This document shows, piece by piece, positions 5,704 through 41,366 of a stretch of 64,000 nucleotides of DNA. The notes beneath the pieces are model-generated. The model was not told the DNA's origin. It did not search any database and was given only the letters and a program-made list of their open reading frames with translations. Each line of letters starts with the position of its first letter. Position 1 is the stretch's first letter. The DNA lies in NCBI GenBank assembly GCA_965279205.1, contig OZ257144.1:2415499-2479498 (forward strand). The letters run 5' to 3'. This DNA comes from Hyphomonadaceae bacterium. Its GTDB lineage: Bacteria > Pseudomonadota > Alphaproteobacteria > Caulobacterales > Hyphomonadaceae. A program made the translations under genes and the position numbers.

Positions 5704-6488
5704 TTCAGCTCTTTGGCTGCGTTGGCGACGTTGCGGTCGTAAAGAATGCGAAGCCCCTTGATGGTGATGTCGCTGTCGAAATGGTCGATTTTGGTCGCGG
5801 CGCCCTCGAAGAGGGAGGCCACGCCACCGGTTGCGATGACTGTCATGGGGTGGCCGTACTCGGTCTTGATGCGTTCGACCAGCCCGTCGATCAGGTCGAT
5901 ATAGCCCCAGAACACGCCGGACTGCATGGCCATGACCGTGTCCGTGCCAATCACCTTCTCCGGCTTCTGGATTGCGACACGCGGCAATTTAGCCGCAGCC
6001 TCGTGCAGCGCCTTCATCGACAGGTTGATGCCCGGTGCGATGATGCCGCCCTGGAATGACCCATCTGCGCCCACAATGTCGAACGTCGTCGCCGTGCCGC
6101 TGTCGATCACGATCAGAGCGCCCGGATAGCTGCCGTGAGACCCTACCGCGTTCACGAGACGATCAGCGCCGACCTCGCTCGGCTTGGGGATCGTCACCTT
6201 CACACCGAGGTCGACATTCTCACCCACCACGAACGGTTCGACGTTGAGATAGCGACGAGCAAGATTGCGCTGGTTGAACAGGGACTGCGGCACAACCGTC
6301 GAGATGATGCAATCATCAATCTGCGAAAGGCTGAGGTTGCTGAGTTCCATGAGCTGCGACAGCCAAACGGCATAGTCATCGGCCGTCTTGGTCATGTCGG
6401 TGGCGCTGCGCCACTGTGCTCGCCATTCCTTGCCGTCGTGCACGGCGAAGAGTGTGTTGGTGTTGCCTGTGTCGATCGCCAGCAGCAT
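5700..6488 (-). CDS. coaX: Type III pantothenate kinase
   Basis: 262 aa. N-terminus [21 protein letters not shown]-fold motifs, about 260 aa as expected. Confidence 0.9.
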
Positions 6489-6511: not shown

Positions 6512-7264
6512 CTAACCCAATACCGAGATTTCGCCCGCGCGAACATGGGTTTCCGCGCCGCTGTCGAGCTTCACGATCAGAGCGCCATCCTCGGCAAGCC
6601 CCGTCATCACGCCCTCAATACGGCCTGAGGCGGGCGTCAACTCCACCCGGGCGCCCAGATATGCGGCATTCGCAAGCCAGTCTGAGCGAGTTGGGCCGAA
6701 GCCTTCGCTCAGCAGGTGGTAAACTCGCGCGCGGAAAGCGATGTCGAGTGATGCCAGCAGCCGTTGCGCGGTTAGATCAGACCCGCCCGTAAGAGCCGTT
6801 AAGCATGATGTTTGCCGGTCAGCTCGCTCAGGCGCGACTTCAACATTCACGCCGAAGCCCGCCGCCATCCAGAGTCGGCCATGGATGGATCCCGTCTCAA
6901 TCAGGATCCCCGCCAGCTTCGCCGGGCCGACGAGAACGTCGTTCGGCCATTTCAGCTTCATCTGCGAGACGTCGACACCGTTGGCGCGCGCCGCATCGAT
7001 GACGGCGAGACCGGCAGAGAAACAGGCAAGCGCGGCTTCGGCCGGGCCGCGCGGATACGGCAACAGCGCGGTTGCATAGAGATTGCCGCGCGGCGAAGAC
7101 CATTGCCGCCCCAGCCTGCCCCTGCCCGCTGTCTGCGCGGCCGTGACCAACCAGCAAGGGCCGACATCGTCAGCCTGCGCCCGGCGGCGTGCTTCCTCGT
7201 TGGTTGAATCGATTTCGTCGAACCGGATGGCCGGCCAGGCGCTCGAGAGTGTTTCGAGCGTCAT
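6512..7264 (-). CDS. birA: Biotin--[acetyl-CoA-carboxylase] ligase (class I, no HTH)
   Basis: 250 aa. [10 protein letters not shown]...[17 protein letters not shown] motif (GRGRxGRxW). Confidence 0.9.
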
Positions 7265-7270
7265 CGCACT

Positions 7271-8710
7271 CTAGCCAGCCGCGGCGAGGTTGGCCGTGGT
7301 CAGCAGCATCTGGATGGTGATCGTCAGCACCGGGAACATCAGGATCGAGGTCGCGAACACTGTCGCGCCAACACTGACATCCGTGCGGTCCAGCGGCTCG
7401 CCCGGCGGCTTCATCATCATCGCCCACACAAGGCGCAGATAGTAGCCGAGTGACACAACGCTGGAGAGAGCGCCAACCAGAACCAGCCACAGCATGTCGG
7501 CCTCGAAGCCGGCGGTGAACACCTGCAGCTTGCCCCAGAAGCCGGCGGCCGGAGGAATGCCAGCCACCGAGAAGATCAGGATGATGAGCCCAAGCGCCAT
7601 ACCCGGCTTCAGCTTGCCGAGACCGTTGAGATCCGACACCTGGTCGATCGCAACGCCATTGCGACGCAGGGCAAGCACGCCGCCGAACATGCCAAGCGTC
7701 GCGACAACGTAGAGCGTCATGTAGACCAGCACGGCGGCCGCGCCGTCTTCCGCACCTGCCGCGATACCAATCAGCGCAAAGCCAACGTTGGAGATCGAGG
7801 AATAGGCGAGAATGCGTTTGATGCTGTTCTGCATCAGCGCGCCGAACGCGCCGATCAGCATGGAGAGCGCCGAAATAATGGCGATGATCTGCTGCCAGGA
7901 GGCTTCGTGCGGGCCGAAGGTGGTGAACATCACATGCGCGAGCAGCGCGACTGCTGCGATCTTGGGCGCGGTCGAGAAGAAGGCCACGACCGGAGCGGGG
8001 GCGCCTTCGTAGACGTCTGGCGTCCAGATGTGGAAGGGCGCAGCCGAAGCCTTGAAAGCCAAGCCGCAGATCACGAACACCAGACCGAAGATCAGGCCCA
8101 CGGAGACCGGCGCTGCCGCAATGACAGGGAAACCCGTGCCGCCCGTGAAGCCATAGATCAGCGACGAACCGTAGAGCAGCAAACCTGAGGCCAGTGCGCC
8201 AAGCACGAAATACTTGAGGCCAGCCTCAGCCGATTTCAGACTGTCCCGCCGGAATGCAGCCAGCACGTAGGACGACAAGCTCAGCGTCTCGAGGCCGACA
8301 TAGAGCGTCATCAGGTCGTTCGCCGACAGCATCATGCCCGCGCCCATTGAGGCGAACACGATCAGAAGCGAATATTCGTAGCGCTCCATCTGTGCGGTCT
8401 TGAGGAAGCCGCCGGACATGAACAGGGCCAGCGCTCCCAGAGCGTAGGTGGCCGCCTTGGCGAACAGCACAAAGGGCGTGACCTTGTAGAGGCCGTTGGG
8501 CGACAGCGCGCTCTTGAACGCTTCAGCATCGCCCTGGTTGAACTGCACCACGGCAACAGCAGCCGCAGCCGCCAGCGCGACAGCTGCCAGCACTCTCAGC
8601 AGGCCGGAGATCCGGTCCCCACCGATTGCGCCCAGCAGCAGGCCGCCAAGTCCGAACGCGGCGAGGATCGCTTCTGGCAGGGCAATCTGGATGTCGGATA
8701 GGAAATCCAT
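7271..8710 (-). CDS. nuoN: NADH-quinone oxidoreductase subunit N
   Basis: 479 aa polytopic antiporter-like subunit, last gene of the nuo operon. Confidence 0.95.
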   Translation of the reverse strand: MDFLSDIQIALPEAILAAFGLGGLLLGAIGGDRISGLLRVLAAVALAAAAAVAVVQFNQGDAEAFKSALSPNGLYKVTPFVLFAKAATYALGALALFMSGGFLKTAQMERYEYSLLIVFASMGAGMMLSANDLMTLYVGLETLSLSSYVLAAFRRDSLKSAEAGLKYFVLGALASGLLLYGSSLIYGFTGGTGFPVIAAAPVSVGLIFGLVFVICGLAFKASAAPFHIWTPDVYEGAPAPVVAFFSTAPKIAAVALLAHVMFTTFGPHEASWQQIIAIISALSMLIGAFGALMQNSIKRILAYSSISNVGFALIGIAAGAEDGAAAVLVYMTLYVVATLGMFGGVLALRRNGVAIDQVSDLNGLGKLKPGMALGLIILIFSVAGIPPAAGFWGKLQVFTAGFEADMLWLVLVGALSSVVSLGYYLRLVWAMMMKPPGEPLDRTDVSVGATVFATSILMFPVLTITIQMLLTTANLAAAG

Positions 8711-32562: not shown

Positions 32563-35500
32563 TCACAACAACCCGCTCATATCCCGCAACAGACCCTTCA
32601 CGCCCGCCAGCCGCGCGGGCGCATCCATCCACGCCCCACTCAACACCAGCTTCATGTCCGGCCGCAGCTTCAACACGTTCGGGCGTTTCTGCACATACGC
32701 AATCAACTTGGCGCCATCCAGCGGCGCATCCGGCCGGAATCCGAGCAATGCGCCCTTCGGCCCCGCCGAAACCTTCGCGACGCCCAGCTTCTTGCAGAGG
32801 ATTTTCACCGCCGTGATTTCGAGCAGCTGCTTGGTCTCGTCCGGCAGCGGGCCAAACCGGTCGATCAGCTCCGCCGCAAACGCCTCGCGTTCTCCGTCAG
32901 TCGCGAGATCGGCCAGCCGCCGGTAGAGCGCCAGGCGCGTCGACAGGTCCTCGACATAGTGGTCCGGGATCAGCACGGCTGCGCCGACATCGATCTGCGG
33001 CGACCAGTCGTCAGCCACCTCATGCCCGTCCAACGCTTCGCCGGACCGCAGCGCCTTCACAGCGTCTTCCAGCATCTGCTGGTACAGTTCGACGCCAACC
33101 TCGCGGATGTGGCCGGACTGTTCCTCACCCAGTAGGTTGCCGCCGCCGCGCATGTCGAGATCGTGACTCGCCAGCATGAAGCCTGCGCCCAGGCTGTCGA
33201 GCGACTGCAGGACCTTCAACCGCTTTTCGGCGCCCTCGGTCAGCTTCTCGTCGTCCGGCGTCGTCAGATAGGCGTAGGCGCGCAGTTTCGCGCGGCCGAC
33301 CCGTCCCCGCAGCTGGTAAAGCTGGGCCAGGCCAAACATGTCGGCCCGGTGGATCACCAGCGTGTTGGCGCGTGGAATATCGAGACCGGACTCAACGATC
33401 GTGGTCGCAAGCAACACGTCCGCCTTGCCGTCGTAGAAGGCCGACATGGCGTCTTCCAGCTCGGTCGGCGTCATCTGGCCATGAGCGATCTGCACCTTCA
33501 CCTCGGGCACCCGCTCGCGCAGATACCGCTCGAGGAAAGGAAGGTCCGCCACGCGCGGCGCCACGAAGTAGGATTGCCCGCCGCGATAGCGTTCCCGCAG
33601 CAGGGCCTCGCGGATCGTTACAGGATCGAACTCGACGACATAGGTCCGCACCGCCAGACGATCGATCGGCGGCGTCGCGATGATCGAGAGATCACGAATT
33701 CCGGTCAGAGCCATCTGCAGCGTGCGCGGGATTGGCGTTGCCGACAGCGTCAGCACGTGCACGTCAGCCTTCAGCTCCTTCAGGCGCTCCTTGTGCTTCA
33801 CACCAAAGCGCTGCTCTTCGTCGACAACGATCATGCCCAGGCGCTTGAAGTCGATCGTCTTGGCCAGCAGAGCGTGCGTGCCGATCACAACATCGCACTC
33901 CCCATTGTTGATCTCTTCGCGCGTCTGCACCGCTTCCTTGGCGGTCACGAAGCGAGAGAGATGCCGAACCTTGATCGGCCAGCCGGCGAACCTCTCGGAG
34001 AATGTCTGGAAATGCTGGCGCGAAAGCAGCGTCGTCGGCGCGATCACCGCCACCTGCAGCCCTGTCATAGCCACCAGGAAGGTTGCCCGCAGCGCCACTT
34101 CCGTCTTGCCGAAGCCAACATCGCCGCAGATCAGGCGATCCATCGGCTTGCCGGATGTCAGATCCTTGACCACGTCCTCGATCGCCGAAAGCTGATCGTC
34201 GGTCTCCTCGTAAGGGAAGCGCGCCGCGAATTCCCGGAACACGCCTTCCGAGGAATCCATCTTCGGCGCGCGCTTCATCTCGCGCTCGGCGGCGAGCCTG
34301 ATCAGCTCGTCCGCCATGTCCATGATCTTCTTCTTGGCTCGCGCCTTGCGCGCCTGCCAACCGCCACCGCCCAGCCGATCCAGCGCGCCCTCGCCGCTCT
34401 CGGCGCCATAGCGCGAGATCAGCTCGACGTTCTCCACGGGCAGCAGGATCTTGTCGCCGCCTGCGTAGATCAACTCGAGACAGTCATGCGGCGCCTCGTT
34501 CACCGTGACCGTCTTGAGGCCTTCGTATCGTCCTACGCCGTGCTCGACGTGAACGATCAGATCGCCCGCTGACAGCGCGGCCGCTTCCGCGATCACTGCT
34601 GCCGACGACTTCCGCTTTCTGGGACGCGCCAGCTTGTCGCCCAGCATGTCCTGTTCGGAGATGATGACGAGATCGTCATCCTCGAACCCAGTCTCGACCG
34701 CGATCTCGGCCACGGACACCTGCGGCTTGGTCGCCTCCGGCCAGCTGCCGATTGATCTAGCGTTGGGAATGCCGTGGTCCGCGAGAATGCCGACCAGCCG
34801 GCTTGCCGACCCCTGGCTCCACGCCGCGATGATCACCTTCTTGCCGGACGCCTGACGTTCCCGGATGTGGCGCACGACAGCATCGAACAGGTTGGCATTC
34901 GGGTCGGCCCGCTCCAGCACGAAGCTCCGGCCCTGCTTCGCCCGCCCCAGCAGCCCGTCGGTCTTCTCGGGTGCATCGTTCGAGGTGAAGCTCACCGTCG
35001 CGCGCGCGTTCAGCTCTTCGCCCAGTTCCTTCGGGTTCAGATATAGCCGCTCGGCAGGAAGCACATGCACCGTCGTCCCGCCGGCCACGGTTGTCCGGCG
35101 AACCTCATAGTACTCCTGCGCCTGGGCGATGCGCTCGCTGGCCGCTTCGGCTGACGCCGGATCGAGCCCGATCAGCGCGTCGTCGCCGACATAGTCGAAT
35201 ACCGTCTCCAGCTTCTCGTAGAACAGCGGCAGCCACTGCTCCACGCCCTGCCGCCGGATGCGTTCACGCGCCGCTTCATAGGTTGGATCACCTCCAGGCG
35301 ACCCGAACGCCGACAGGAAATTCTTCCGCAGAAGCGACAGCGCCGCATCGGAAAAATCGATCTCACTCACTGGCGCGAGCACGATCTCTTTCAGTTCAAC
35401 GGTCGATCTCTGACTCTCTGGATCGAAATACCGCGCCGCTTCCAGTTCATCTCCGAAGAAGTCGAGCCGCACCGGCTCCGGCAAGCCCGCCGGAAAGATG

Positions 35501-36024
35501 TCGACGATCCCGCCGCGCATCGAATACTCGCCCGCCTCGCGTACGGTCGAGGCCCGGCTGTATCCGTTGATGTCGAGATAGGCGCGGATCTTGTCCTGTG
35601 GAACCGTATCGCCGACGCGCGCCACAAACGCCGCCAGTCCCATGTGCGATCTAGGCGGCACGCGCTGCACAGCCGACGACGCGGTCGTCACGACCAGCAT
35701 CGGCGCCCCGGACTTGCCCTGTGAGGAGCGCCCGGCCAGGCGCGCCAGCGCCGCACAGCGTTGCGCAGCTACGCTGGGGCTCGGGCTCACCCGGTCATAC
35801 GGCAGACAGTCCCACGCCGGCAGGTTCACCACATCCAGCAGCGGCGCAAAGAACCGCCCAGCCGCAGCCGCCATGAAGGCATGCCGGTCATCGCGTGCGA
35901 TATAGAGCGAGGTCCCGCCTCGCTTCTGCGCAGCCTCGGCCATCAGGCGCACGTCCGCTATGAACGGCGTCTCGAAGACCCGGACCGGCTTCGTCTGGCT
36001 GGCGATGGAATCCCAAACTCTCAA
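32563..36024 (-). CDS. mfd: Transcription-repair coupling factor
   Basis: 1153 aa. UvrB-homology N-terminus, CarD-like domain, SF2 helicase motifs (GDVGFGKTEVA, DEEQRFG), TRG and C-terminal domain. Confidence 0.95.
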   Translation of the reverse strand: MRVWDSIASQTKPVRVFETPFIADVRLMAEAAQKRGGTSLYIARDDRHAFMAAAAGRFFAPLLDVVNLPAWDCLPYDRVSPSPSVAAQRCAALARLAGRSSQGKSGAPMLVVTTASSAVQRVPPRSHMGLAAFVARVGDTVPQDKIRAYLDINGYSRASTVREAGEYSMRGGIVDIFPAGLPEPVRLDFFGDELEAARYFDPESQRSTVELKEIVLAPVSEIDFSDAALSLLRKNFLSAFGSPGGDPTYEAARERIRRQGVEQWLPLFYEKLETVFDYVGDDALIGLDPASAEAASERIAQAQEYYEVRRTTVAGGTTVHVLPAERLYLNPKELGEELNARATVSFTSNDAPEKTDGLLGRAKQGRSFVLERADPNANLFDAVVRHIRERQASGKKVIIAAWSQGSASRLVGILADHGIPNARSIGSWPEATKPQVSVAEIAVETGFEDDDLVIISEQDMLGDKLARPRKRKSSAAVIAEAAALSAGDLIVHVEHGVGRYEGLKTVTVNEAPHDCLELIYAGGDKILLPVENVELISRYGAESGEGALDRLGGGGWQARKARAKKKIMDMADELIRLAAEREMKRAPKMDSSEGVFREFAARFPYEETDDQLSAIEDVVKDLTSGKPMDRLICGDVGFGKTEVALRATFLVAMTGLQVAVIAPTTLLSRQHFQTFSERFAGWPIKVRHLSRFVTAKEAVQTREEINNGECDVVIGTHALLAKTIDFKRLGMIVVDEEQRFGVKHKERLKELKADVHVLTLSATPIPRTLQMALTGIRDLSIIATPPIDRLAVRTYVVEFDPVTIREALLRERYRGGQSYFVAPRVADLPFLERYLRERVPEVKVQIAHGQMTPTELEDAMSAFYDGKADVLLATTIVESGLDIPRANTLVIHRADMFGLAQLYQLRGRVGRAKLRAYAYLTTPDDEKLTEGAEKRLKVLQSLDSLGAGFMLASHDLDMRGGGNLLGEEQSGHIREVGVELYQQMLEDAVKALRSGEALDGHEVADDWSPQIDVGAAVLIPDHYVEDLSTRLALYRRLADLATDGEREAFAAELIDRFGPLPDETKQLLEITAVKILCKKLGVAKVSAGPKGALLGFRPDAPLDGAKLIAYVQKRPNVLKLRPDMKLVLSGAWMDAPARLAGVKGLLRDMSGLL

Positions 36025-36127
36025 GGCCAGACTCTCAAGGAGTGACTCGCATACTCAACCCACGCAAAATGGAATCGTTCGCCCGCCCGGACGTTCGATT
36101 GAGCGTCCAGGCTGGCCGAGGGTTCCG

Positions 36128-36394
36128 TTATGTGGGCGGGGAATAGCGGAACGACAACAGCAGGTCGAGGACTTCCGAACGCTGGCTGTCGGCGGGGCGT
36201 CCGCGCCCCATGATCCAGTCGAAAACATGCTGGTCCGGGATGTCGAGCACCACCTCGAACTGGTCGAGCTGGCGCCCGTCAAACCTTCCCAGATGGGCCT
36301 CCGTGAACTGCTGCATGTAGAGATCCAGCTCCCGGAACCCCCGCCGGGCAGCCCGGAACTGCAGCTTCCTGCGACGTGTCTCGATCTCGTTCAT
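36128..36394 (-). CDS. sdhE: FAD assembly factor SdhE (Sdh5/DUF339 family)
   Basis: 88 aa. RRKLQFRAARRGFRELDLYMQQF...DQHVFDWIMG with the RGxxE motif. Confidence 0.85.
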   Translation of the reverse strand: MNEIETRRRKLQFRAARRGFRELDLYMQQFTEAHLGRFDGRQLDQFEVVLDIPDQHVFDWIMGRGRPADSQRSEVLDLLLSFRYSPPT

Positions 36395-36518
36395 GGAAGG
36401 TCTCTACTCCGGCCCCAGCGCCGGAGAAAGTGGGGCCACAAGCAGTTAGTACCCTTGCTTTCCCCCGAGTCGCCAACCGCCTGCACGCCCGCTAATATCC
36501 CTCTGGAAGGAGTGGATT

Positions 36519-36854
36519 TTGCGTACGAAGGCCGCTGAAATTCACAAGCATGTTGGCCTCTGCATCCGCTGCCGGCGGCGCGAGTGCGGCTTGTCACAGG
36601 CCGAGCTAGGCGCCCGCGCCGGTATCCCGATCCGCGAGCTCCAGCAATACGAACTTGGTCTTGCGCCGATCTCAGCGAAATCACTCCTGGATGTCGCTCG
36701 CCAGCTGGGCGTCGACATCGGGTATTTCTTTCGTGGCTACGACTGGCCTCCCGGCGGAGAAAGCGAACAACTTCCGCTCGTCCGGCGAACGCCTGTCGCC
36801 GCGTCCACGCTCCGTGCTGCGCACAGCGCTCGCCATCGCGGGGAGCGCAACTAG
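36519..36854 (+). CDS. XRE-family helix-turn-helix transcriptional regulator
   Basis: 111 aa. TTG start 6 nt after GGAAGGAG. HTH: GLSQAELGARAGIPIRELQQYELGLAPISAKSLLDVARQLGV. Stop overlaps the luxR-type GTG (TAGTG). Confidence 0.75.
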   Translation: MRTKAAEIHKHVGLCIRCRRRECGLSQAELGARAGIPIRELQQYELGLAPISAKSLLDVARQLGVDIGYFFRGYDWPPGGESEQLPLVRRTPVAASTLRAAHSARHRGERN

Positions 36855-37609
36855 TGTCCGACGAACGCGTCCGCCTCGCCGAATCCCTACTGTCCTTTTG
36901 GCAGCTGTCCGAGAAGGCGCTATCCGAGAACGAACTCCTGCGCGCGCTGATGGCGCGGCTTGAGCCCTATGGCGTCCGCCATGTCAGCGCCGGCGTCACC
37001 ACCGATCACAAGCGTGTCTTCAAGATCGGCAACCGCTTCCATTTCGGCAAACTCAACATGGCCTGGTCGGAGGCCTATTTCGGCAAGCAGCTTTACCGGC
37101 ACGATCCAATCCTCGCGCACTCGCTCAAGGCGGAGAACTCAAACTACTGGGATCGCGCCATCGACATGACAAAGATCAACCGCGCCGGCCAGCGCGTGTT
37201 CGGCATGGCGGCTGATTGCGGCGTCCGTGATGGCTTCATCGTTCCGGCGCCGCTGTTCAACGGCGACGTGATGATTGTCGCCTTTCAGGGTGAGCGGCTC
37301 GATCGGCACCCCGACGTCGAGGCGCTCATGCGCGGTCTGGGGATGTATTACGGGATGGAGGGCCAGAGGCTCGTCATGGGCAAGCGACAACGCGCTGGCG
37401 CGCTCGCCGGCCTCAGCGCCCGCCAGATCCAGGCGCTCCACCTGGCGGCGCTCGGCCGAAAGCAGAACGAAATTGCCCGCGAAATGGGCGTCAGCCTCGC
37501 TACCGTCGAGTATCACCTCAAGATGGCGCGCGAGCGTCTTGGCGCCCGGAACACCACCGAGGCGGTGAACCTGATCCACTCGACGCCCAAGAACCTCTTC
37601 ACTTCCTAA
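36854..37609 (+). CDS. LuxR-family acyl-homoserine-lactone-responsive transcriptional regulator
   Basis: In frame within ORF 36584..37609, start set at GTG 36854 (251 aa). Autoinducer-binding signature W..Y...Y.HDP...........W (WSEAYFGKQLYRHDPILAHSLKAENSNYWD). C-terminal GerE HTH: LSARQIQALHLAALGRKQNEIAREMGVSLATVEYHLKMARERLGA. Confidence 0.85.
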   Translation: MSDERVRLAESLLSFWQLSEKALSENELLRALMARLEPYGVRHVSAGVTTDHKRVFKIGNRFHFGKLNMAWSEAYFGKQLYRHDPILAHSLKAENSNYWDRAIDMTKINRAGQRVFGMAADCGVRDGFIVPAPLFNGDVMIVAFQGERLDRHPDVEALMRGLGMYYGMEGQRLVMGKRQRAGALAGLSARQIQALHLAALGRKQNEIAREMGVSLATVEYHLKMARERLGARNTTEAVNLIHSTPKNLFTS

Positions 37610-37681
37610 GGGAAACCATAGGGGCGTCACAGCGCGCCGTTCTGGAAGCTCTCTCCGTGGTCTTGCACGGGAGGGCCTGCC

Positions 37682-38482
37682 TTGCTCAGTCATTGCGTCA
37701 CGCCCGCCAACCGCGCGCGGTACATGCATCAGCTCGAGGACATGTTCCACCAGCGCCACGACTTTTTCGTGGACAAGAAGGGTTGGGGCGAACTTCGCCA
37801 TGAAGATGGCCGCGACTGCGATGACTACGACACGGACGAAACCGTCTACCTCTTGGTCATCGGCGACATGGGCGAAGTCCTCGCCTCGGCCCGGCTGAAC
37901 CCCACCTGGGGTCGCCACCAGCTCGAGCAAGGTTCGCCCCTCAACACAACCTACGCCAACCGGCCGGTTCCTCATGGTCCCAAAGTCTGGGAATGCTCAC
38001 GCATGCTCGGCGGCGACTCGCGGCGCGGCCGCGAGCACGCGATCCAGACCTTTGCCCAGCTCATGATCGCGATCGGCGAATTCTGCCGCCGCCGCAGTGT
38101 GCTCGACATCGTCTCGGTTCTCGAGACTTCGGCCATCACCCATTTCCAGACGGCCGGCTTCCGCTGCGAACCGCTCGGCCTGCCCGTTCGCTACCAGACC
38201 GAGCGCGGCCCCTCCGACGCCATGGCGACGATCATCCGTATCGGCGGCCCCGGCAGCAGCCGCATGCGCCGCCAACTCGACCAGCCATCGCCGATCTTCT
38301 TCGAGGCGGCCTCCCTGCGGAGCGAGGCTGAACCGGCCCCTCCGCCCTTCGCGCTTTTGGAAAGCGCCTCCGAGATCAGGACCGAATCCGGCCGCCGCGT
38401 GGCGATGGAGGCCATCCACGCCATCCTGATGCAGGAAGCGGCAATGAACGACAACATTTCGATCGAGCGCATGAAAGCCTGA
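37682..38482 (+). CDS. LuxI-family acyl-homoserine-lactone synthase with about 65-aa C-terminal extension
   Basis: 266 aa. Conserved LuxI residues in order: R..FF....GW......DGRDCDDYD...YLLV...ASARLNPT...VWECSRM. The TTG start is uncertain; ATG at 37724 is possible. Confidence 0.8.
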   Translation: MLSHCVTPANRARYMHQLEDMFHQRHDFFVDKKGWGELRHEDGRDCDDYDTDETVYLLVIGDMGEVLASARLNPTWGRHQLEQGSPLNTTYANRPVPHGPKVWECSRMLGGDSRRGREHAIQTFAQLMIAIGEFCRRRSVLDIVSVLETSAITHFQTAGFRCEPLGLPVRYQTERGPSDAMATIIRIGGPGSSRMRRQLDQPSPIFFEAASLRSEAEPAPPPFALLESASEIRTESGRRVAMEAIHAILMQEAAMNDNISIERMKA

Positions 38483-38505
38483 TCGACGGAGATGGGGACG
38501 GGCCG

Positions 38506-38535
38506 CGCCTCTCTCGCCTTCGGGCGAGGGAGGCG
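38506..38535 (+). terminator. Stem-loop downstream of the luxI-type gene
   Basis: CGCCTCTCTCGCC-TTCG-GGCGAGGGAGGCG: 13-bp stem with one G-U pair and a TTCG tetraloop. Only a weak T-tract follows. Confidence 0.45.
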
Positions 38536-38594
38536 GTTCCGTATCTGAAACAGGGCCTGCCGCGACTCTTCCAAACCCGCTAGCATGTCCGGGC

Positions 38595-40676
38595 ATGCGC
38601 GATACGGTCCTTTATCCGTTCTACGCTGACATCTCCGGGCTTCCCGGCGTGGGGCCGAAAGTGCGCCCAGTCCTTGCCCGTCTGATCGGCGGGGAGACGC
38701 TGCTCGACCTGATCTTCCATCTGCCCGTCAGCTGGATCGACCGCCGCAACCGGGCCTCCATCGAAGCGCTCCAGGTCGGCGAGGTCGCCACCGTCACCGC
38801 CACGGTGGACCAGGTGACCCCCAGCCGGGGCAAATGGCCCACGCGCGTGCGACTGCGCGACGAAACGGGTTTCCTCACCCTCATCTATTTCCACGCCAAC
38901 AATCAGTGGCTCGAGCGTACCTTCAAGATCGGCGAGCAGGTGATGGTCTCCGGCACGATCGAGGATTATGAAGGCGCCCGCCAGATGAGCCATCCGGACC
39001 ATGTGGTCAATCCGGACAAGGACGACGAACTTCCGGAAGTCGAGCCCGTCTATCCGATGACGGCCAATCTCACCGCCAAGGCCCTGCGCAAGTTCATGGC
39101 AGCAGCGCTGGAGAAGGCGCCTGACCTTGAAGAGTGGATCGACCCGCACCTGATGACGCGTAACCGCTGGCCTAGCTTCCAGCAGGCCCTGCTGCGTCTT
39201 CATCAGCCGAAGGTCTACGACCCCGACGGCTTCGAAGTCGCCCGCGCCCGGCTTGCTTACGACGAGGCGCTGGCTCGCGAGATGGCGATGGGTCAGGCCC
39301 GCCTCGCTCGCGAGCGTCGTCACGCGCCTTCCATCCCCCGCGCCCTCGGCGCCGAACGCCTCATCATCGAAGCGCTGCCCTTCAAGCCGACGCGCGCCCA
39401 ACTCGACGCCTATTCCGATGTCGCGATCGACATGGGCCGGCCCGTGCCCATGCGCCGGATGATCCAGGGCGACGTTGGCTCCGGCAAAACGCTCGTCGCG
39501 GCTCTCGCCGCTGCTCAGGTTTCCGCCAATGGCGGCATCACCGCGCTCATGTCGCCCACCGAAGTCCTCGCCCGCCAGCAGGCAGAGGCCATTGGCAAGT
39601 TCCTTGCCCCCGCCGGCATCCGCGTCGCCGCGCTCACCGGTCGCGACAAGGGCGCTGCGCGCGACGCCATCCTCGCCGACGTCCGCGCCGGCAAGATCCA
39701 GGTCCTCTCCGGCACGCAGGCGCTCTACCAGTCCGATGTCGACCTTCCTGACCTCGCCCTCGTTGTTATCGACGAACAGCATCGCTTTGGCGTTGCCGAT
39801 CGCCTGAAACTCACAGCCAAGGGCGCCTCGCCGCACATGCTGGTGATGAGCGCTACGCCTATCCCCCGCACCATGGCGCTTGCTGTCCATGGCGATCTCG
39901 ACATGTCCTTCATCCGTGAGAAGCCTGCCAACCGGCAAGAAGTCGCCACCGCGGCCATTCCCGACACCCGCATCGACGAGGTGATGGCGGCCGTCGCCCG
40001 CGCCGTCGATCGCGGCGAGCGCGCCTTCTGGATCTGCCCCGCCGTGGACAGCGAGGATGCGGGCGATGCCTCCGCCGTCGCTCGCCGAGACGTGCTAGCT
40101 GACCTGATCCGTGCGCCGGTGGATCTGGTGCATGGCCGCATGCCGGCGTTGGACCGAGACCTTGCGCTCGAACGTCTCCGCTCCGGCGAAGCGCCTGTCC
40201 TCGTCGCCACCACCGTGATCGAAGTCGGCGTCGATGTGCCCGAAGCCACCATCATGGTGATCGAGCATGCCGAGAAATTCGGCCTCGCTCAGCTTCACCA
40301 GTTGCGCGGACGCGTCGGCCGTAGCGACAAGGCATCGAGCTGCATCCTGCTCTATCAGGCGCCGCTGACCGAGGCCGGCAAGGAACGCCTCGATACGCTG
40401 CGCAAATCGACCGATGGCTTCGAGATCGCCGAAGCCGACTTCAGGCTGCGGGGGCCCGGCGACCTGCTCGGCCTGCGCCAGTCCGGCCTGCCTGCTTTCC
40501 GTGTCCTCGACATCATGCAGGACACCAACCTGATCGAAACCGCCCGCACGGATTCAAAATCCATCCTCATGGCCGACCCGCGCCTCGAAGGCGCCCGAGG
40601 AACCGCCGTCCGCCGCGCCCGCGACCTCTTCGCACCGCGCATTGCCTCGATGGTGACGGAAGCAGGTGAGGAGTAG
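38595..40676 (+). CDS. recG: ATP-dependent DNA helicase RecG
   Basis: 693 aa. Wedge/OB domain plus SF2 motifs (GDVGSGKTLVA, DEQHRFG, QLHQLRGRVGR). Confidence 0.95.
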   Translation: MRDTVLYPFYADISGLPGVGPKVRPVLARLIGGETLLDLIFHLPVSWIDRRNRASIEALQVGEVATVTATVDQVTPSRGKWPTRVRLRDETGFLTLIYFHANNQWLERTFKIGEQVMVSGTIEDYEGARQMSHPDHVVNPDKDDELPEVEPVYPMTANLTAKALRKFMAAALEKAPDLEEWIDPHLMTRNRWPSFQQALLRLHQPKVYDPDGFEVARARLAYDEALAREMAMGQARLARERRHAPSIPRALGAERLIIEALPFKPTRAQLDAYSDVAIDMGRPVPMRRMIQGDVGSGKTLVAALAAAQVSANGGITALMSPTEVLARQQAEAIGKFLAPAGIRVAALTGRDKGAARDAILADVRAGKIQVLSGTQALYQSDVDLPDLALVVIDEQHRFGVADRLKLTAKGASPHMLVMSATPIPRTMALAVHGDLDMSFIREKPANRQEVATAAIPDTRIDEVMAAVARAVDRGERAFWICPAVDSEDAGDASAVARRDVLADLIRAPVDLVHGRMPALDRDLALERLRSGEAPVLVATTVIEVGVDVPEATIMVIEHAEKFGLAQLHQLRGRVGRSDKASSCILLYQAPLTEAGKERLDTLRKSTDGFEIAEADFRLRGPGDLLGLRQSGLPAFRVLDIMQDTNLIETARTDSKSILMADPRLEGARGTAVRRARDLFAPRIASMVTEAGEE

Positions 40677-40706: not shown

Positions 40707-40751
40707 AGCGTTTCCGGACCTATGGTCTGCCGAGGCTTCCAGGGGACGGAT

Positions 40752-41366
40752 ATGGCGGAAAAAATGGGACTTGTCGGCTGGTCGACGATCCTGGCGACGT
40801 GGGTCGGCATCGCGGGAGGCGGCTTCGGCCTTTACACCACGATCCACGACAACCAGGAGGCGGCAGCCAAGGCGCAAGCGCTCGCGGAGAAAGAGTTCGC
40901 AGCGCAAAGCGAGGCATGGGAAAAAGAGATAAGCGGGCAAAAGGCTCAGACGCTGAGGATGTTCGAGATCTTCAACGGCGGCGAGATGCTCGCCGCTCGC
41001 GAAAAGATCTACGACTACATCCAGCTTCCCGAAAATGCCGAACCGAAGCTGACCGACATTCTCATCTATTTCGATTTTTTCGATGCACTGAAGATCTGCG
41101 TCGAGAACTATCTTTGCGACCAGGACGTCGCGGTCCGCCTCTTTCAGGGCTACTCCCTCGACGCTTGGCAGCTCGAAGGCGACGTCAAGCTGATGCGCAA
41201 GGAGTTCGACATTCTCTTTGCTGACGGTGTCGAGTGGATGACGAACCTTCCAGCCGCGCCCGAAGTTTCCATTGCTGAAGCGGCAACCTCACCAGACCCG
41301 GAACCCGAGGAGGCTCCCGTAGCCGCCGCGGTTACGGCAACAGCTCCGGAAAAGCCTGCGCAATAG
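40752..41366 (+). CDS. Hypothetical single-pass membrane protein (loosely DUF4760-like)
   Basis: ORF 40722..41366, start trimmed to MAEKMGLVGW. One N-terminal TM (STILATWVGIAGGGFGLY), a coiled-coil-like stretch, a helical domain and an acidic Pro-rich tail. Confidence 0.4.
   Translation: MAEKMGLVGWSTILATWVGIAGGGFGLYTTIHDNQEAAAKAQALAEKEFAAQSEAWEKEISGQKAQTLRMFEIFNGGEMLAAREKIYDYIQLPENAEPKLTDILIYFDFFDALKICVENYLCDQDVAVRLFQGYSLDAWQLEGDVKLMRKEFDILFADGVEWMTNLPAAPEVSIAEAATSPDPEPEEAPVAAAVTATAPEKPAQ

Follow-up and report, generated by a model that had tools for sequence, protein, structure and literature searches.

A putative xre-luxR-luxI quorum-sensing operon between sdhE and recG on the chromosome of an uncultured Hyphomonadaceae bacterium

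Operons of the xre-luxR(-luxI) type have been described, according to full-text literature searches, only in Aeromonas phages and Roseobacter prophages. The linear plasmid-like Aeromonas phages ARM81ld and Apop carry xre-luxR operons, in which the XRE protein activates the operon and is needed, together with LuxR bound to C4-homoserine lactone (C4-HSL), at the promoter of a small open reading frame (ORF) (Silpe 2023, Nature, PMC10432266). In Phaeobacter prophages, four-gene hth / xre-luxR-luxI modules serve as lysis-lysogeny switches, with an XRE protein that is indispensable in Phage A and has a mild repressive effect in Phage B; in the accompanying survey these modules were found only in the Roseobacter clade (Bunsick 2026, bioRxiv 10.64898/2026.07.02.736140). 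Both papers come from the Bassler laboratory. Here we describe an xre-luxR-luxI cassette from the chromosome of an uncultured, freshwater-type Hyphomonadaceae bacterium (assembly GCA_965279205.1, contig OZ257144.1). It lies in a stretch of 64,000 nucleotides (positions 2,415,499 to 2,479,498 of the forward strand), hereafter called the window, to which all coordinates refer unless another locus is named. The cassette was noticed in an earlier inspection of the letters (the sequence-only reading), which placed three co-oriented genes between sdhE and recG. All three lie where it put them, with mfd, sdhE and recG as flanks.

We consider it likely that this cassette is an intact chromosomal quorum-sensing operon of the acyl-homoserine lactone (AHL, acyl-HSL) type, acquired as a 2.1-kb unit by an ancestor shared with one sister lineage; the argument is built on sequence comparison. 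The genes xre, luxR and luxI share one orientation and follow each other in that order; the first two overlap by 1 nt, 72 nt separate luxR from luxI, and one terminator stands 3' of luxI. The parts of the cassette are as follows.

36395..36518, plus strand: sdhE-xre spacer, the operon control region, 124 nt
36519..36854, plus strand: xre, 111 aa, TTG start, Cro/cI-type helix-turn-helix (HTH), HTH_3 domain
36854..37609, plus strand: luxR, 251 aa, GTG start, Autoind_bind and GerE domains
37648..37676, plus strand: luxR-luxI spacer hairpin pairing the luxI Shine-Dalgarno sequence (SD), free energy (dG) -19.7 kcal/mol
37682..38482, plus strand: luxI, 266 aa, TTG start, acyl-HSL synthase family, Autoind_synth domain
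38506..38535, plus strand: terminator-type hairpin closing the insert, 13-bp GC stem, UUCG loop

Profile searches with HTH_3, Autoind_bind, GerE and Autoind_synth, which the sequence-only reading had proposed, all give matches above the family cutoffs. For XRE the HTH_3 match has E=3.5e-10 (40.2 bits against a cutoff of 23), and the nearest solved structures are the DNA-binding domains of the 434 repressor and the P22 C2 repressor. The TTG start and strong SD originally ascribed to this HTH gene are confirmed: the SD GGAAGGAG stands at 36505-36512, and the N-terminus (TKAAEIHKHVG) aligns with homologues, which backs the start. LuxR matches Autoind_bind (E=5e-18, 65.4 bits) and GerE (E=3e-11, 43.3 bits). 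Its GTG at 36854 shares a G with the TAG stop of xre (TAGTG), so that the overlap claimed for the two genes is real and 1 nt long, and alignment with homologues from residue 1 backs this start as well. The canonical AHL-pocket residues attributed to LuxR are all found when it is aligned to TraR (1H0M): W71, Y75, D84, P85, W99 and G127 (6/6) correspond to W57, Y61, D70, P71, W85 and G113 of TraR. Of the TraR DNA-binding residues E178, L182 and G188, the leucine and the glycine are kept, and the position of E178 is occupied by Q (LSARQIQALHLAALG).

The third protein belongs to the AHL synthase family by the same measures. Members of the LuxI family share R25, F29, W35, an acidic cluster, R70, E101 and R104, together with a GNAT-like fold. 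Window LuxI matches Autoind_synth over residues 13-169 (E=9e-15, 55.1 bits against a cutoff of 24) and aligns with its relatives from residue 1, backing the TTG start; R25, F29, W35, D42/D45/D47/D50, R71, E104 and R107 do not vary among 18 homologues, in line with the conserved residues from which the gene had been recognized. Its nearest solved proteins are BjaI (5W8A, E=1e-25, 32% identity), RpaI (3.5e-17), TofI (7.5e-10), MesI (3.3e-08) and LasI (2e-06). An AlphaFold2 model (mean pLDDT 81) leads to the same neighbours, the top Foldseek hits being BjaI and RpaI with TM-scores of 0.84-0.85 normalized to the target, ahead of TofI and LasI as in the sequence ranking. By sequence and predicted fold, LuxI is thus closest to the coenzyme A (CoA)-dependent synthases BjaI and RpaI, a closeness suggesting that the substrate is an acyl-CoA and the signal non-fatty-acyl.

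That the cassette was inserted into a conserved gene junction, as first proposed, is borne out by synteny. With sdhE as anchor, 31 related loci were fetched, one genome per species, and the cassette occupies the sdhE/recG junction in 0/31 of these species; a check on whether the same three genes fill the junction in all relatives thus leaves the insertion standing. The distance from sdhE to recG is 87-204 bp in L014, L017, L025, L035 and the distant outgroup L036, and 0.84-1.4 kb in seven species, and recG does not occur within 8 kb in at least eight species. The ends of the window spacer align to both ends of the ancestral spacer, on the left to ~36420 and on the right from ~38550, including CCAAACCCGCTAGCAT. 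Alignment to insert-free relatives puts the left boundary at ~36420-36450, the first ~25 nt of the spacer being ancestral sdhE leader, and the ~2.1-kb insert comprises exactly the control region, the three genes and the terminator. Since insert-free relatives have a short junction, the window borders match both ends of it, and a sister lineage keeps a remnant at the same site (see below), the cassette is, on these alignments, a real insertion into an ancestrally tight junction that became a variable hot spot in this clade. The borders of the junction are given here.

32563..36024, minus strand: mfd, left flank, housekeeping, 1153-aa ORF
36128..36394, minus strand: sdhE, left border gene of the junction, Pfam Sdh5 (E=2.5e-20)
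38550..38594, plus strand: ancestral recG leader with the promoter-like block CCAAACCCGCTAGCAT, right insert boundary, conserved in the insert-free relatives L014, L017 and L035
38595..40676, plus strand: recG, right flank, housekeeping, 693-aa ORF

These flanks are those of the family: Mfd shares 84-89% identity with the Mfd proteins that occupy this position in 30 Hyphomonadaceae loci, SdhE reaches 86% with its best match, and RecG is 72-88% identical to the sdhE-adjoining RecG of related Hyphomonadaceae loci (45% against the outgroup L036).

The age and upkeep of the insertion can be gauged from a sister lineage. A profile of the LuxI C-terminus recovered P0020, a 97-aa xre'-'luxI fusion ORF, on two contigs (L047, 1112-1405; L048, 363-656) that read mfd-sdhE-[remnant]-recG and share ~87% nucleotide identity with the window. 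L048 aligns to window positions 36206-36672 and 38289-38995 with a 9-nt overlap, and a deletion of 1,625 bp in the sister lineage is bounded precisely by two copies of CGCCGATCT, which in the window lie as follows.

36664..36672, plus strand: left copy of the 9-nt direct repeat CGCCGATCT, deletion endpoint in the sister lineage
38289..38297, plus strand: right copy of the 9-nt direct repeat CGCCGATCT, deletion endpoint in the sister lineage

The sister xre also has an in-frame TAG near its start. Because the remnant sits at the same junction, the insertion predates the split of the two lineages. In the retained 3' part of luxI, dN/dS is 0.06 at a dS of 0.88 between window and sister lineage, and recG gives 0.05; the cassette, with the C-terminal extension of LuxI, was thus subject to purifying selection for most of the time since the split. 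The stem of the terminator shows a compensatory change from U-A to C-G in L048.

Base composition, which had been suggested as a further check, does not mark the cassette as foreign. Its GC content is 0.641 against 0.631 for the window, and codon adaptation of luxR and luxI is host-like (z about 0); xre alone deviates (z = -2.1). Composition neither supports nor refutes an insertion, and since it is uninformative the case is built on synteny. Target-site duplications and terminal inverted repeats were sought at the insert borders, where only short matches at chance level occur, such as AGGGCCTGCC twice. The closest LuxI (64% identity) is encoded in the Hyphomonadaceae metagenome-assembled genome OZ257149.1, as part of an xre-luxR-luxI unit (L001) at another chromosomal site; the sdhE junction of that genome (L019) is occupied by other genes. 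A plasmid origin was considered and set aside: the best plasmid LuxI matches (Phenylobacterium, Methylorubrum, Paracoccus) cover just the core, at 28-37% identity, and the two such loci inspected, from Phenylobacterium and Paracoccus, have no xre.

Other cargo is found at the same junction in related species. The gaps of 0.84-1.4 kb mostly hold a membrane protein of ~200 aa, at times with a second gene. A predicted membrane protein of ~190-210 aa (SFEFFTVLLSFVVS...) stands upstream of recG and in the same orientation at L008:6725-7357, L010:7178-7798, L012:6816-7448 and L023:5339-5911; L008 and L012 have a further unrelated gene in the gap, and L009, L013 and L026 have gaps of 0.9-1.0 kb with no convincing ORF. 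At the junction of another Hyphomonadaceae species lies a different LuxI (L016:6542-7432, minus strand, with sdhE at 8001). It is 296 aa long, again with a long extension at its C-terminus, shares 32% identity with that of the window and matches Autoind_synth (E=4e-17). Next to it come OmpA-like and FMO-like genes, recG is not within 8 kb, and tblastn detected no LuxR in the 16-kb locus. In the window itself, an ORF of 214 aa directly 3' of recG (40722-41366; GC 0.586, GC at third codon positions (GC3) 0.72, no Pfam match) may be another small variable insert.

The putative control elements of the cassette are RNA hairpins and a candidate promoter region. The stem-loop reported after luxI is a terminator hairpin with a dG of -37.4 kcal/mol and z = -4.16, formed by a 13-bp stem. 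Upstream of luxI, the SD GGGAGGG (37669-37675) is paired with the anti-SD CUCUCC (37649-37656), and the CCGTG-N6-CACGG motif pointed out earlier in the spacer is present as the core of this hairpin (37648-37676). Taken alone, the window hairpin is not significant (z = -1.3). A hairpin that sequesters the SD is nevertheless found directly upstream of luxI in 10/10 loci of the subfamily (window, L001, L046, L037, L039, L002, L004, L040, L041 and L045), with a CUCC-type anti-SD and a conserved position; loop and stem sequences vary by locus and are not alignable. In the luxI leaders z averages -2.2 and the SD is unpaired with a mean probability of 0.22; the corresponding values for luxR leaders from this set of loci are -0.17 and 0.56. 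MAFFT followed by RNAalifold gave no consensus for the luxI leaders, whose loops differ in length and whose sequences do not align, so that the hairpin is argued from folds of single sequences and the matched control. An Rfam search of 36000-38800 returned a sub-threshold chance match only.

Further upstream, the sdhE-xre spacer contains a -10-like GCTAATAT at 36491-36498, and GAGTCGCCAAC, GCTA..T and the xre SD within it are conserved in the sister locus L048. A scan for sigma-70 consensus promoters found nothing; we infer that the promoter lies in this spacer. The 72-nt luxR-luxI spacer of the window has no lux-box-like palindrome, in agreement with the sequence-only reading. Such palindromes occur in the luxR-luxI spacers of relatives that lack xre (L041:654-673, ACCTAGACTTTTGTCTAGGT; L040:~1583-1602, ACCTGGACTTTTGTCTAGGT; L002:~6001-6018, CCTAGTATATCTACTAGG; L004:~7178-7193, GTAGGGTTTTCCCTAC) and are candidate operators for this LuxR subfamily. 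Neither the spacer nor the rest of the window holds a convincing copy of this CCTAG-N8-CTAGG family, every match having 2-3 mismatches. A degenerate half-site, CCATAGGGG, is seen at 37616-37624.

From these elements a working order of events may be sketched. One promoter upstream of xre would transcribe all three genes, the 72-nt spacer being devoid of a lux box, and the TAGTG overlap would cause XRE and LuxR to be made in a fixed ratio. XRE would bind the operon control region and be either a partner that signal-bound LuxR cannot do without, the case of the Aeromonas phages and Phaeobacter Phage A, or a brake, the case of Phage B. The label of repressor given to XRE at first sight was an assumption, as the protein is an essential co-activator in some of the studied operons and a mild repressor in one. 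Output of LuxI would be held low by the TTG start and the SD hairpin, and the signal would probably be a non-standard (branched or aryl) acyl-HSL made from acyl-CoA.

How firmly xre belongs to this circuit can be judged from related loci, which were gathered through LuxI homologues and an XRE profile (the P0011 and P0018 contigs were judged from gene tables). A single-sequence search with XRE returned only itself, so that an alignment-based profile was needed. The XREs adjoining this LuxR/LuxI subfamily are 35-47% identical in the HTH core, and the gene stands in four layouts. In the window it overlaps luxR and shares its orientation; L001, L046 and the P0011 contig have both genes in one orientation, 92-94 nt apart; in L039 they are again co-oriented, at a distance of 154 nt; and in L037, L038, L042, L051 and L052 xre diverges from luxR. 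Because homologous XREs accompany the subfamily through four layouts, the linkage looks functional, and since XRE-linked loci are basal or paraphyletic on the LuxI tree it is old and was lost about once. A sister clade of LuxR-LuxI pairs (L002, L004, L045 and the P0018 contig) has no linked XRE. The luxR-luxI spacer measures 55-72 nt in XRE-linked loci, mostly with TTG or GTG starts of luxI (the exception being L052, with ATG), and 98-188 nt in XRE-less loci, which mostly have a lux-box-like palindrome of the CCTAG-N8-CTAGG type and an ATG start of luxI. Spacers and starts are suggestive of co-transcription of luxI with luxR when xre is present. Two-component genes often lie beside cassettes of this subfamily (a PAS-HisKA-receiver hybrid kinase at L001:11000-12574, a CHASE4 hybrid kinase at L051:1-1141, a single receiver domain at L004:8066-8521), which may point to a connection of the quorum-sensing unit with phosphorelay signalling; none lies beside the window cassette.

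These loci also bear on an alternative in which xre is a mere neighbour, an autonomous small repressor or former antitoxin, and luxR-luxI is a classical two-gene circuit whose overlap with xre arose from compaction. The XRE-less relatives fit this view, as does the slack conservation of XRE: the window protein is 35-40% identical to the luxR-adjoining XREs of L001, L046, L039, L037, L051 and L052, whereas LuxR is 58-74% identical between cassettes. The deviant codon usage of xre and a weak NCBIfam similarity of its product to HipB/Y4mF-type antitoxins, far below the cutoff, point the same way. However, a neighbour by chance would hardly be expected beside luxR through at least four layouts, inversion included; among XRE homologues with E<1e-29, the two with inspected contigs (2/2) both adjoin LuxR-LuxI; a toxin gene is absent; co-expression follows from the stop/start overlap; and in both experimental systems with this layout XRE affects a LuxR-controlled promoter. 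We therefore think this alternative unlikely.

Similarly improbable, in our judgement, is that the cassette is the relic of a lysis-lysogeny switch of a phage or mobile element, which lost hth and the rest and was kept by the host, for example for its signalling niche or for phage interference. The idea draws support from the gene order, which is that of the prophage P_Lysogeny operons, and from the observation that such modules are kept inside degraded prophages (bioRxiv 10.64898/2026.07.02.736140). The closest solved XRE relatives are phage repressors, and the more distant XRE homologues have an rve integrase as neighbour (L053) or belong to a prophage-like region (L054). In the latter, the homologue at L054:4001-4414 (E=5e-15) is accompanied by a Peptidase_S24 repressor-type gene, many small ORFs and a tyrosine integrase, a setting that fits phage-repressor ancestry of this XRE family. 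An integrase also lies 1.6 kb downstream in L004 and an IS110 transposase near L052, and the sdhE/recG junction is a hot spot with varied cargo. The surroundings of the cassette speak against such an origin. On either side, the nearest 10 kb contain no domains of phages or mobile elements and encode housekeeping or uncharacterized proteins only: peptidase M1, CoA-transferase, DUF2200, SDR, Mfd, SdhE, RecG, DUF502, DUF3089, cyclophilin and GyrA, with two Pfam-less ORFs. Around L001 and L037, phage or mobile-element genes are likewise absent. The 124-nt sdhE-xre spacer leaves no room for hth, and neither target-site duplication nor terminal repeats were found at the insert borders. The LuxI subfamily is absent from IMG/VR viral contigs and GenBank phages, GenBank phage LuxRs are only 23-25% identical to that of the window (full-length matches), and luxR and luxI have the codon usage of the host.

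That the cassette is decaying and without function in the window genome, as the deletion and in-frame stop of the sister lineage, the weak starts of all three genes (TTG, GTG, TTG) and the degenerate state of the relatives' lux box might suggest, is very unlikely, since the three ORFs are intact and of full length against homologues, catalytic and ligand-binding residues are present, the 3' part of luxI is as constrained as recG, and SDs, hairpin and terminator are preserved.

Several observations weigh against an intact three-gene operon as we have drawn it. Promoter, XRE operator and lux box are not identifiable in the window, so that transcription as a single operon and the target of XRE are deductions. 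XRE is not indispensable to the subfamily, given the related LuxR-LuxI pairs that lack it, and the association of XRE with short spacers and non-ATG starts comes down to about a single change in the course of the LuxI tree, with L052 as the exception. The xre gene combines atypical codon usage with the lowest conservation of the three. As to the signal, TofI and LasI, which use acyl carrier protein (ACP), are significant matches of LuxI too, and dependence on CoA or ACP is not readable from similarity alone. An intact, acquired quorum-sensing operon remains the reading that we favour.

The C-terminal part of LuxI deserves separate comment. The catalytic core extends over ~residues 1-208 and is followed by an extension of ~58 residues (209-266; 38306-38479), which the AlphaFold2 model renders as a low-confidence linker (209-228) and a long helix (229-265). 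All 18 homologues share this conserved extension, which is marked by the motifs GPxxFEA and ALLESAxE and has no Pfam match; the subfamily itself amounts to 18 clusters among 5.8 billion proteins and is environmentally restricted. A profile of the extension, run against 1.84 billion representative proteins, found LuxI C-termini or fragments of this subfamily only, plus one weak repeat protein. We hypothesize that the extension is a regulatory or partner-binding tail. In Rhizobium and Methylobacterium, the XRE-type regulator PraR is bound by the anti-repressors CinS and MmaP, polypeptides of ~60 residues that are made with the synthase and encoded downstream of cinI and mmaI (PMC4149787, PMC10790750). 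A fusion of a CinS/MmaP-like protein to LuxI was considered and rejected, as the extension has neither a Pfam match nor stand-alone small homologues among the 1.84 billion proteins. By analogy, one might speculate that a purely chromosomal circuit uses XRE and LuxR together as an obligate two-factor receptor, that the helix of LuxI acts as a CinS/MmaP-like tail contacting XRE or LuxR, and that the signal is a CoA-derived, non-fatty-acyl HSL; taken as a whole, this proposal is a long shot. If it were true, a LuxI with a regulatory tail would feed back on its own transcription factors, in a self-contained three-protein module not yet described in bacteria.

The xre-luxR-luxI arrangement also exists, then, as a stand-alone chromosomal unit, in an alphaproteobacterial order other than that of the Roseobacter prophage hosts. 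A chromosomal copy raises the question of precedence, that is, whether the phage switch or the cellular circuit came first. The small LuxI subfamily, related to CoA-dependent synthases and with a C-terminal helix under selection, is a candidate source of new signal chemistry. Finally, the intact window copy and the sister remnant make a natural gain/loss pair for quorum sensing in uncultured freshwater and wastewater Hyphomonadaceae.

Among known systems, the Roseobacter prophage module is the closest in gene order: both have co-oriented xre-luxR-luxI genes with xre first, a full LuxR/LuxI pair and the form of a discrete, exchangeable cassette. In contrast to that module, the window cassette has no counter-oriented hth, for which no ORF would fit in the 124 nt between xre and sdhE, lies outside any prophage between housekeeping genes of a Hyphomonadaceae chromosome, and encodes a BjaI-like LuxI with a C-terminal helix. 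The unit may well work like the prophage modules; we do not file it as a member, as it lacks two defining features, hth and the prophage context. With the Aeromonas phages the window shares the xre-luxR operon, and the cooperation of XRE with LuxR in these phages provides the working model for co-translation here. Unlike the window, those phages have no luxI and eavesdrop on C4-HSL of the host, a small ORF for an anti-repressor serves as their output and sets off lysis, and their hosts are Gammaproteobacteria. The LuxRs of the GenBank phage collection are only ~23% identical to window LuxR.

The systems BjaI/BjaR and RpaI/RpaR of Bradyrhizobium and Rhodopseudomonas (PDB 5W8A, 6WN0) provide the best sequence and fold matches of window LuxI, but the PDB chains of BjaI and RpaI comprise 213-221 aa and do not have the C-terminal linker and helix of ~58 residues. 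These two differ from the window cassette in size at the C-terminus, and we know of no xre at their loci. Genes of the RsaL, RsaM and MupX types belong to unrelated families and are found between luxR and luxI or downstream. They resemble xre in being extra small regulators tied to a LuxR/LuxI pair; the extra gene of the window differs in its place upstream of luxR, with which it is coupled in translation, and in encoding a Cro/cI-type HTH protein. PraR with CinS/MmaP is a further case of an XRE-family regulator wired into alphaproteobacterial AHL signalling, and the LuxI extension has the size and position of CinS and MmaP; unlike the window genes, praR is unlinked to quorum-sensing genes, and CinS and MmaP are separate proteins. 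Window XRE may resemble PraR. The departure from the rsaL/rsaM/mupX-type order that was pointed out at first reading is not without precedent, as xre-luxR was published in 2023 and xre-luxR-luxI appeared in a 2026 preprint, both from phages. What is new is a chromosomal xre-luxR-luxI copy without phage context, in the Caulobacterales, with a BjaI-like synthase that has a novel C-terminal helix.

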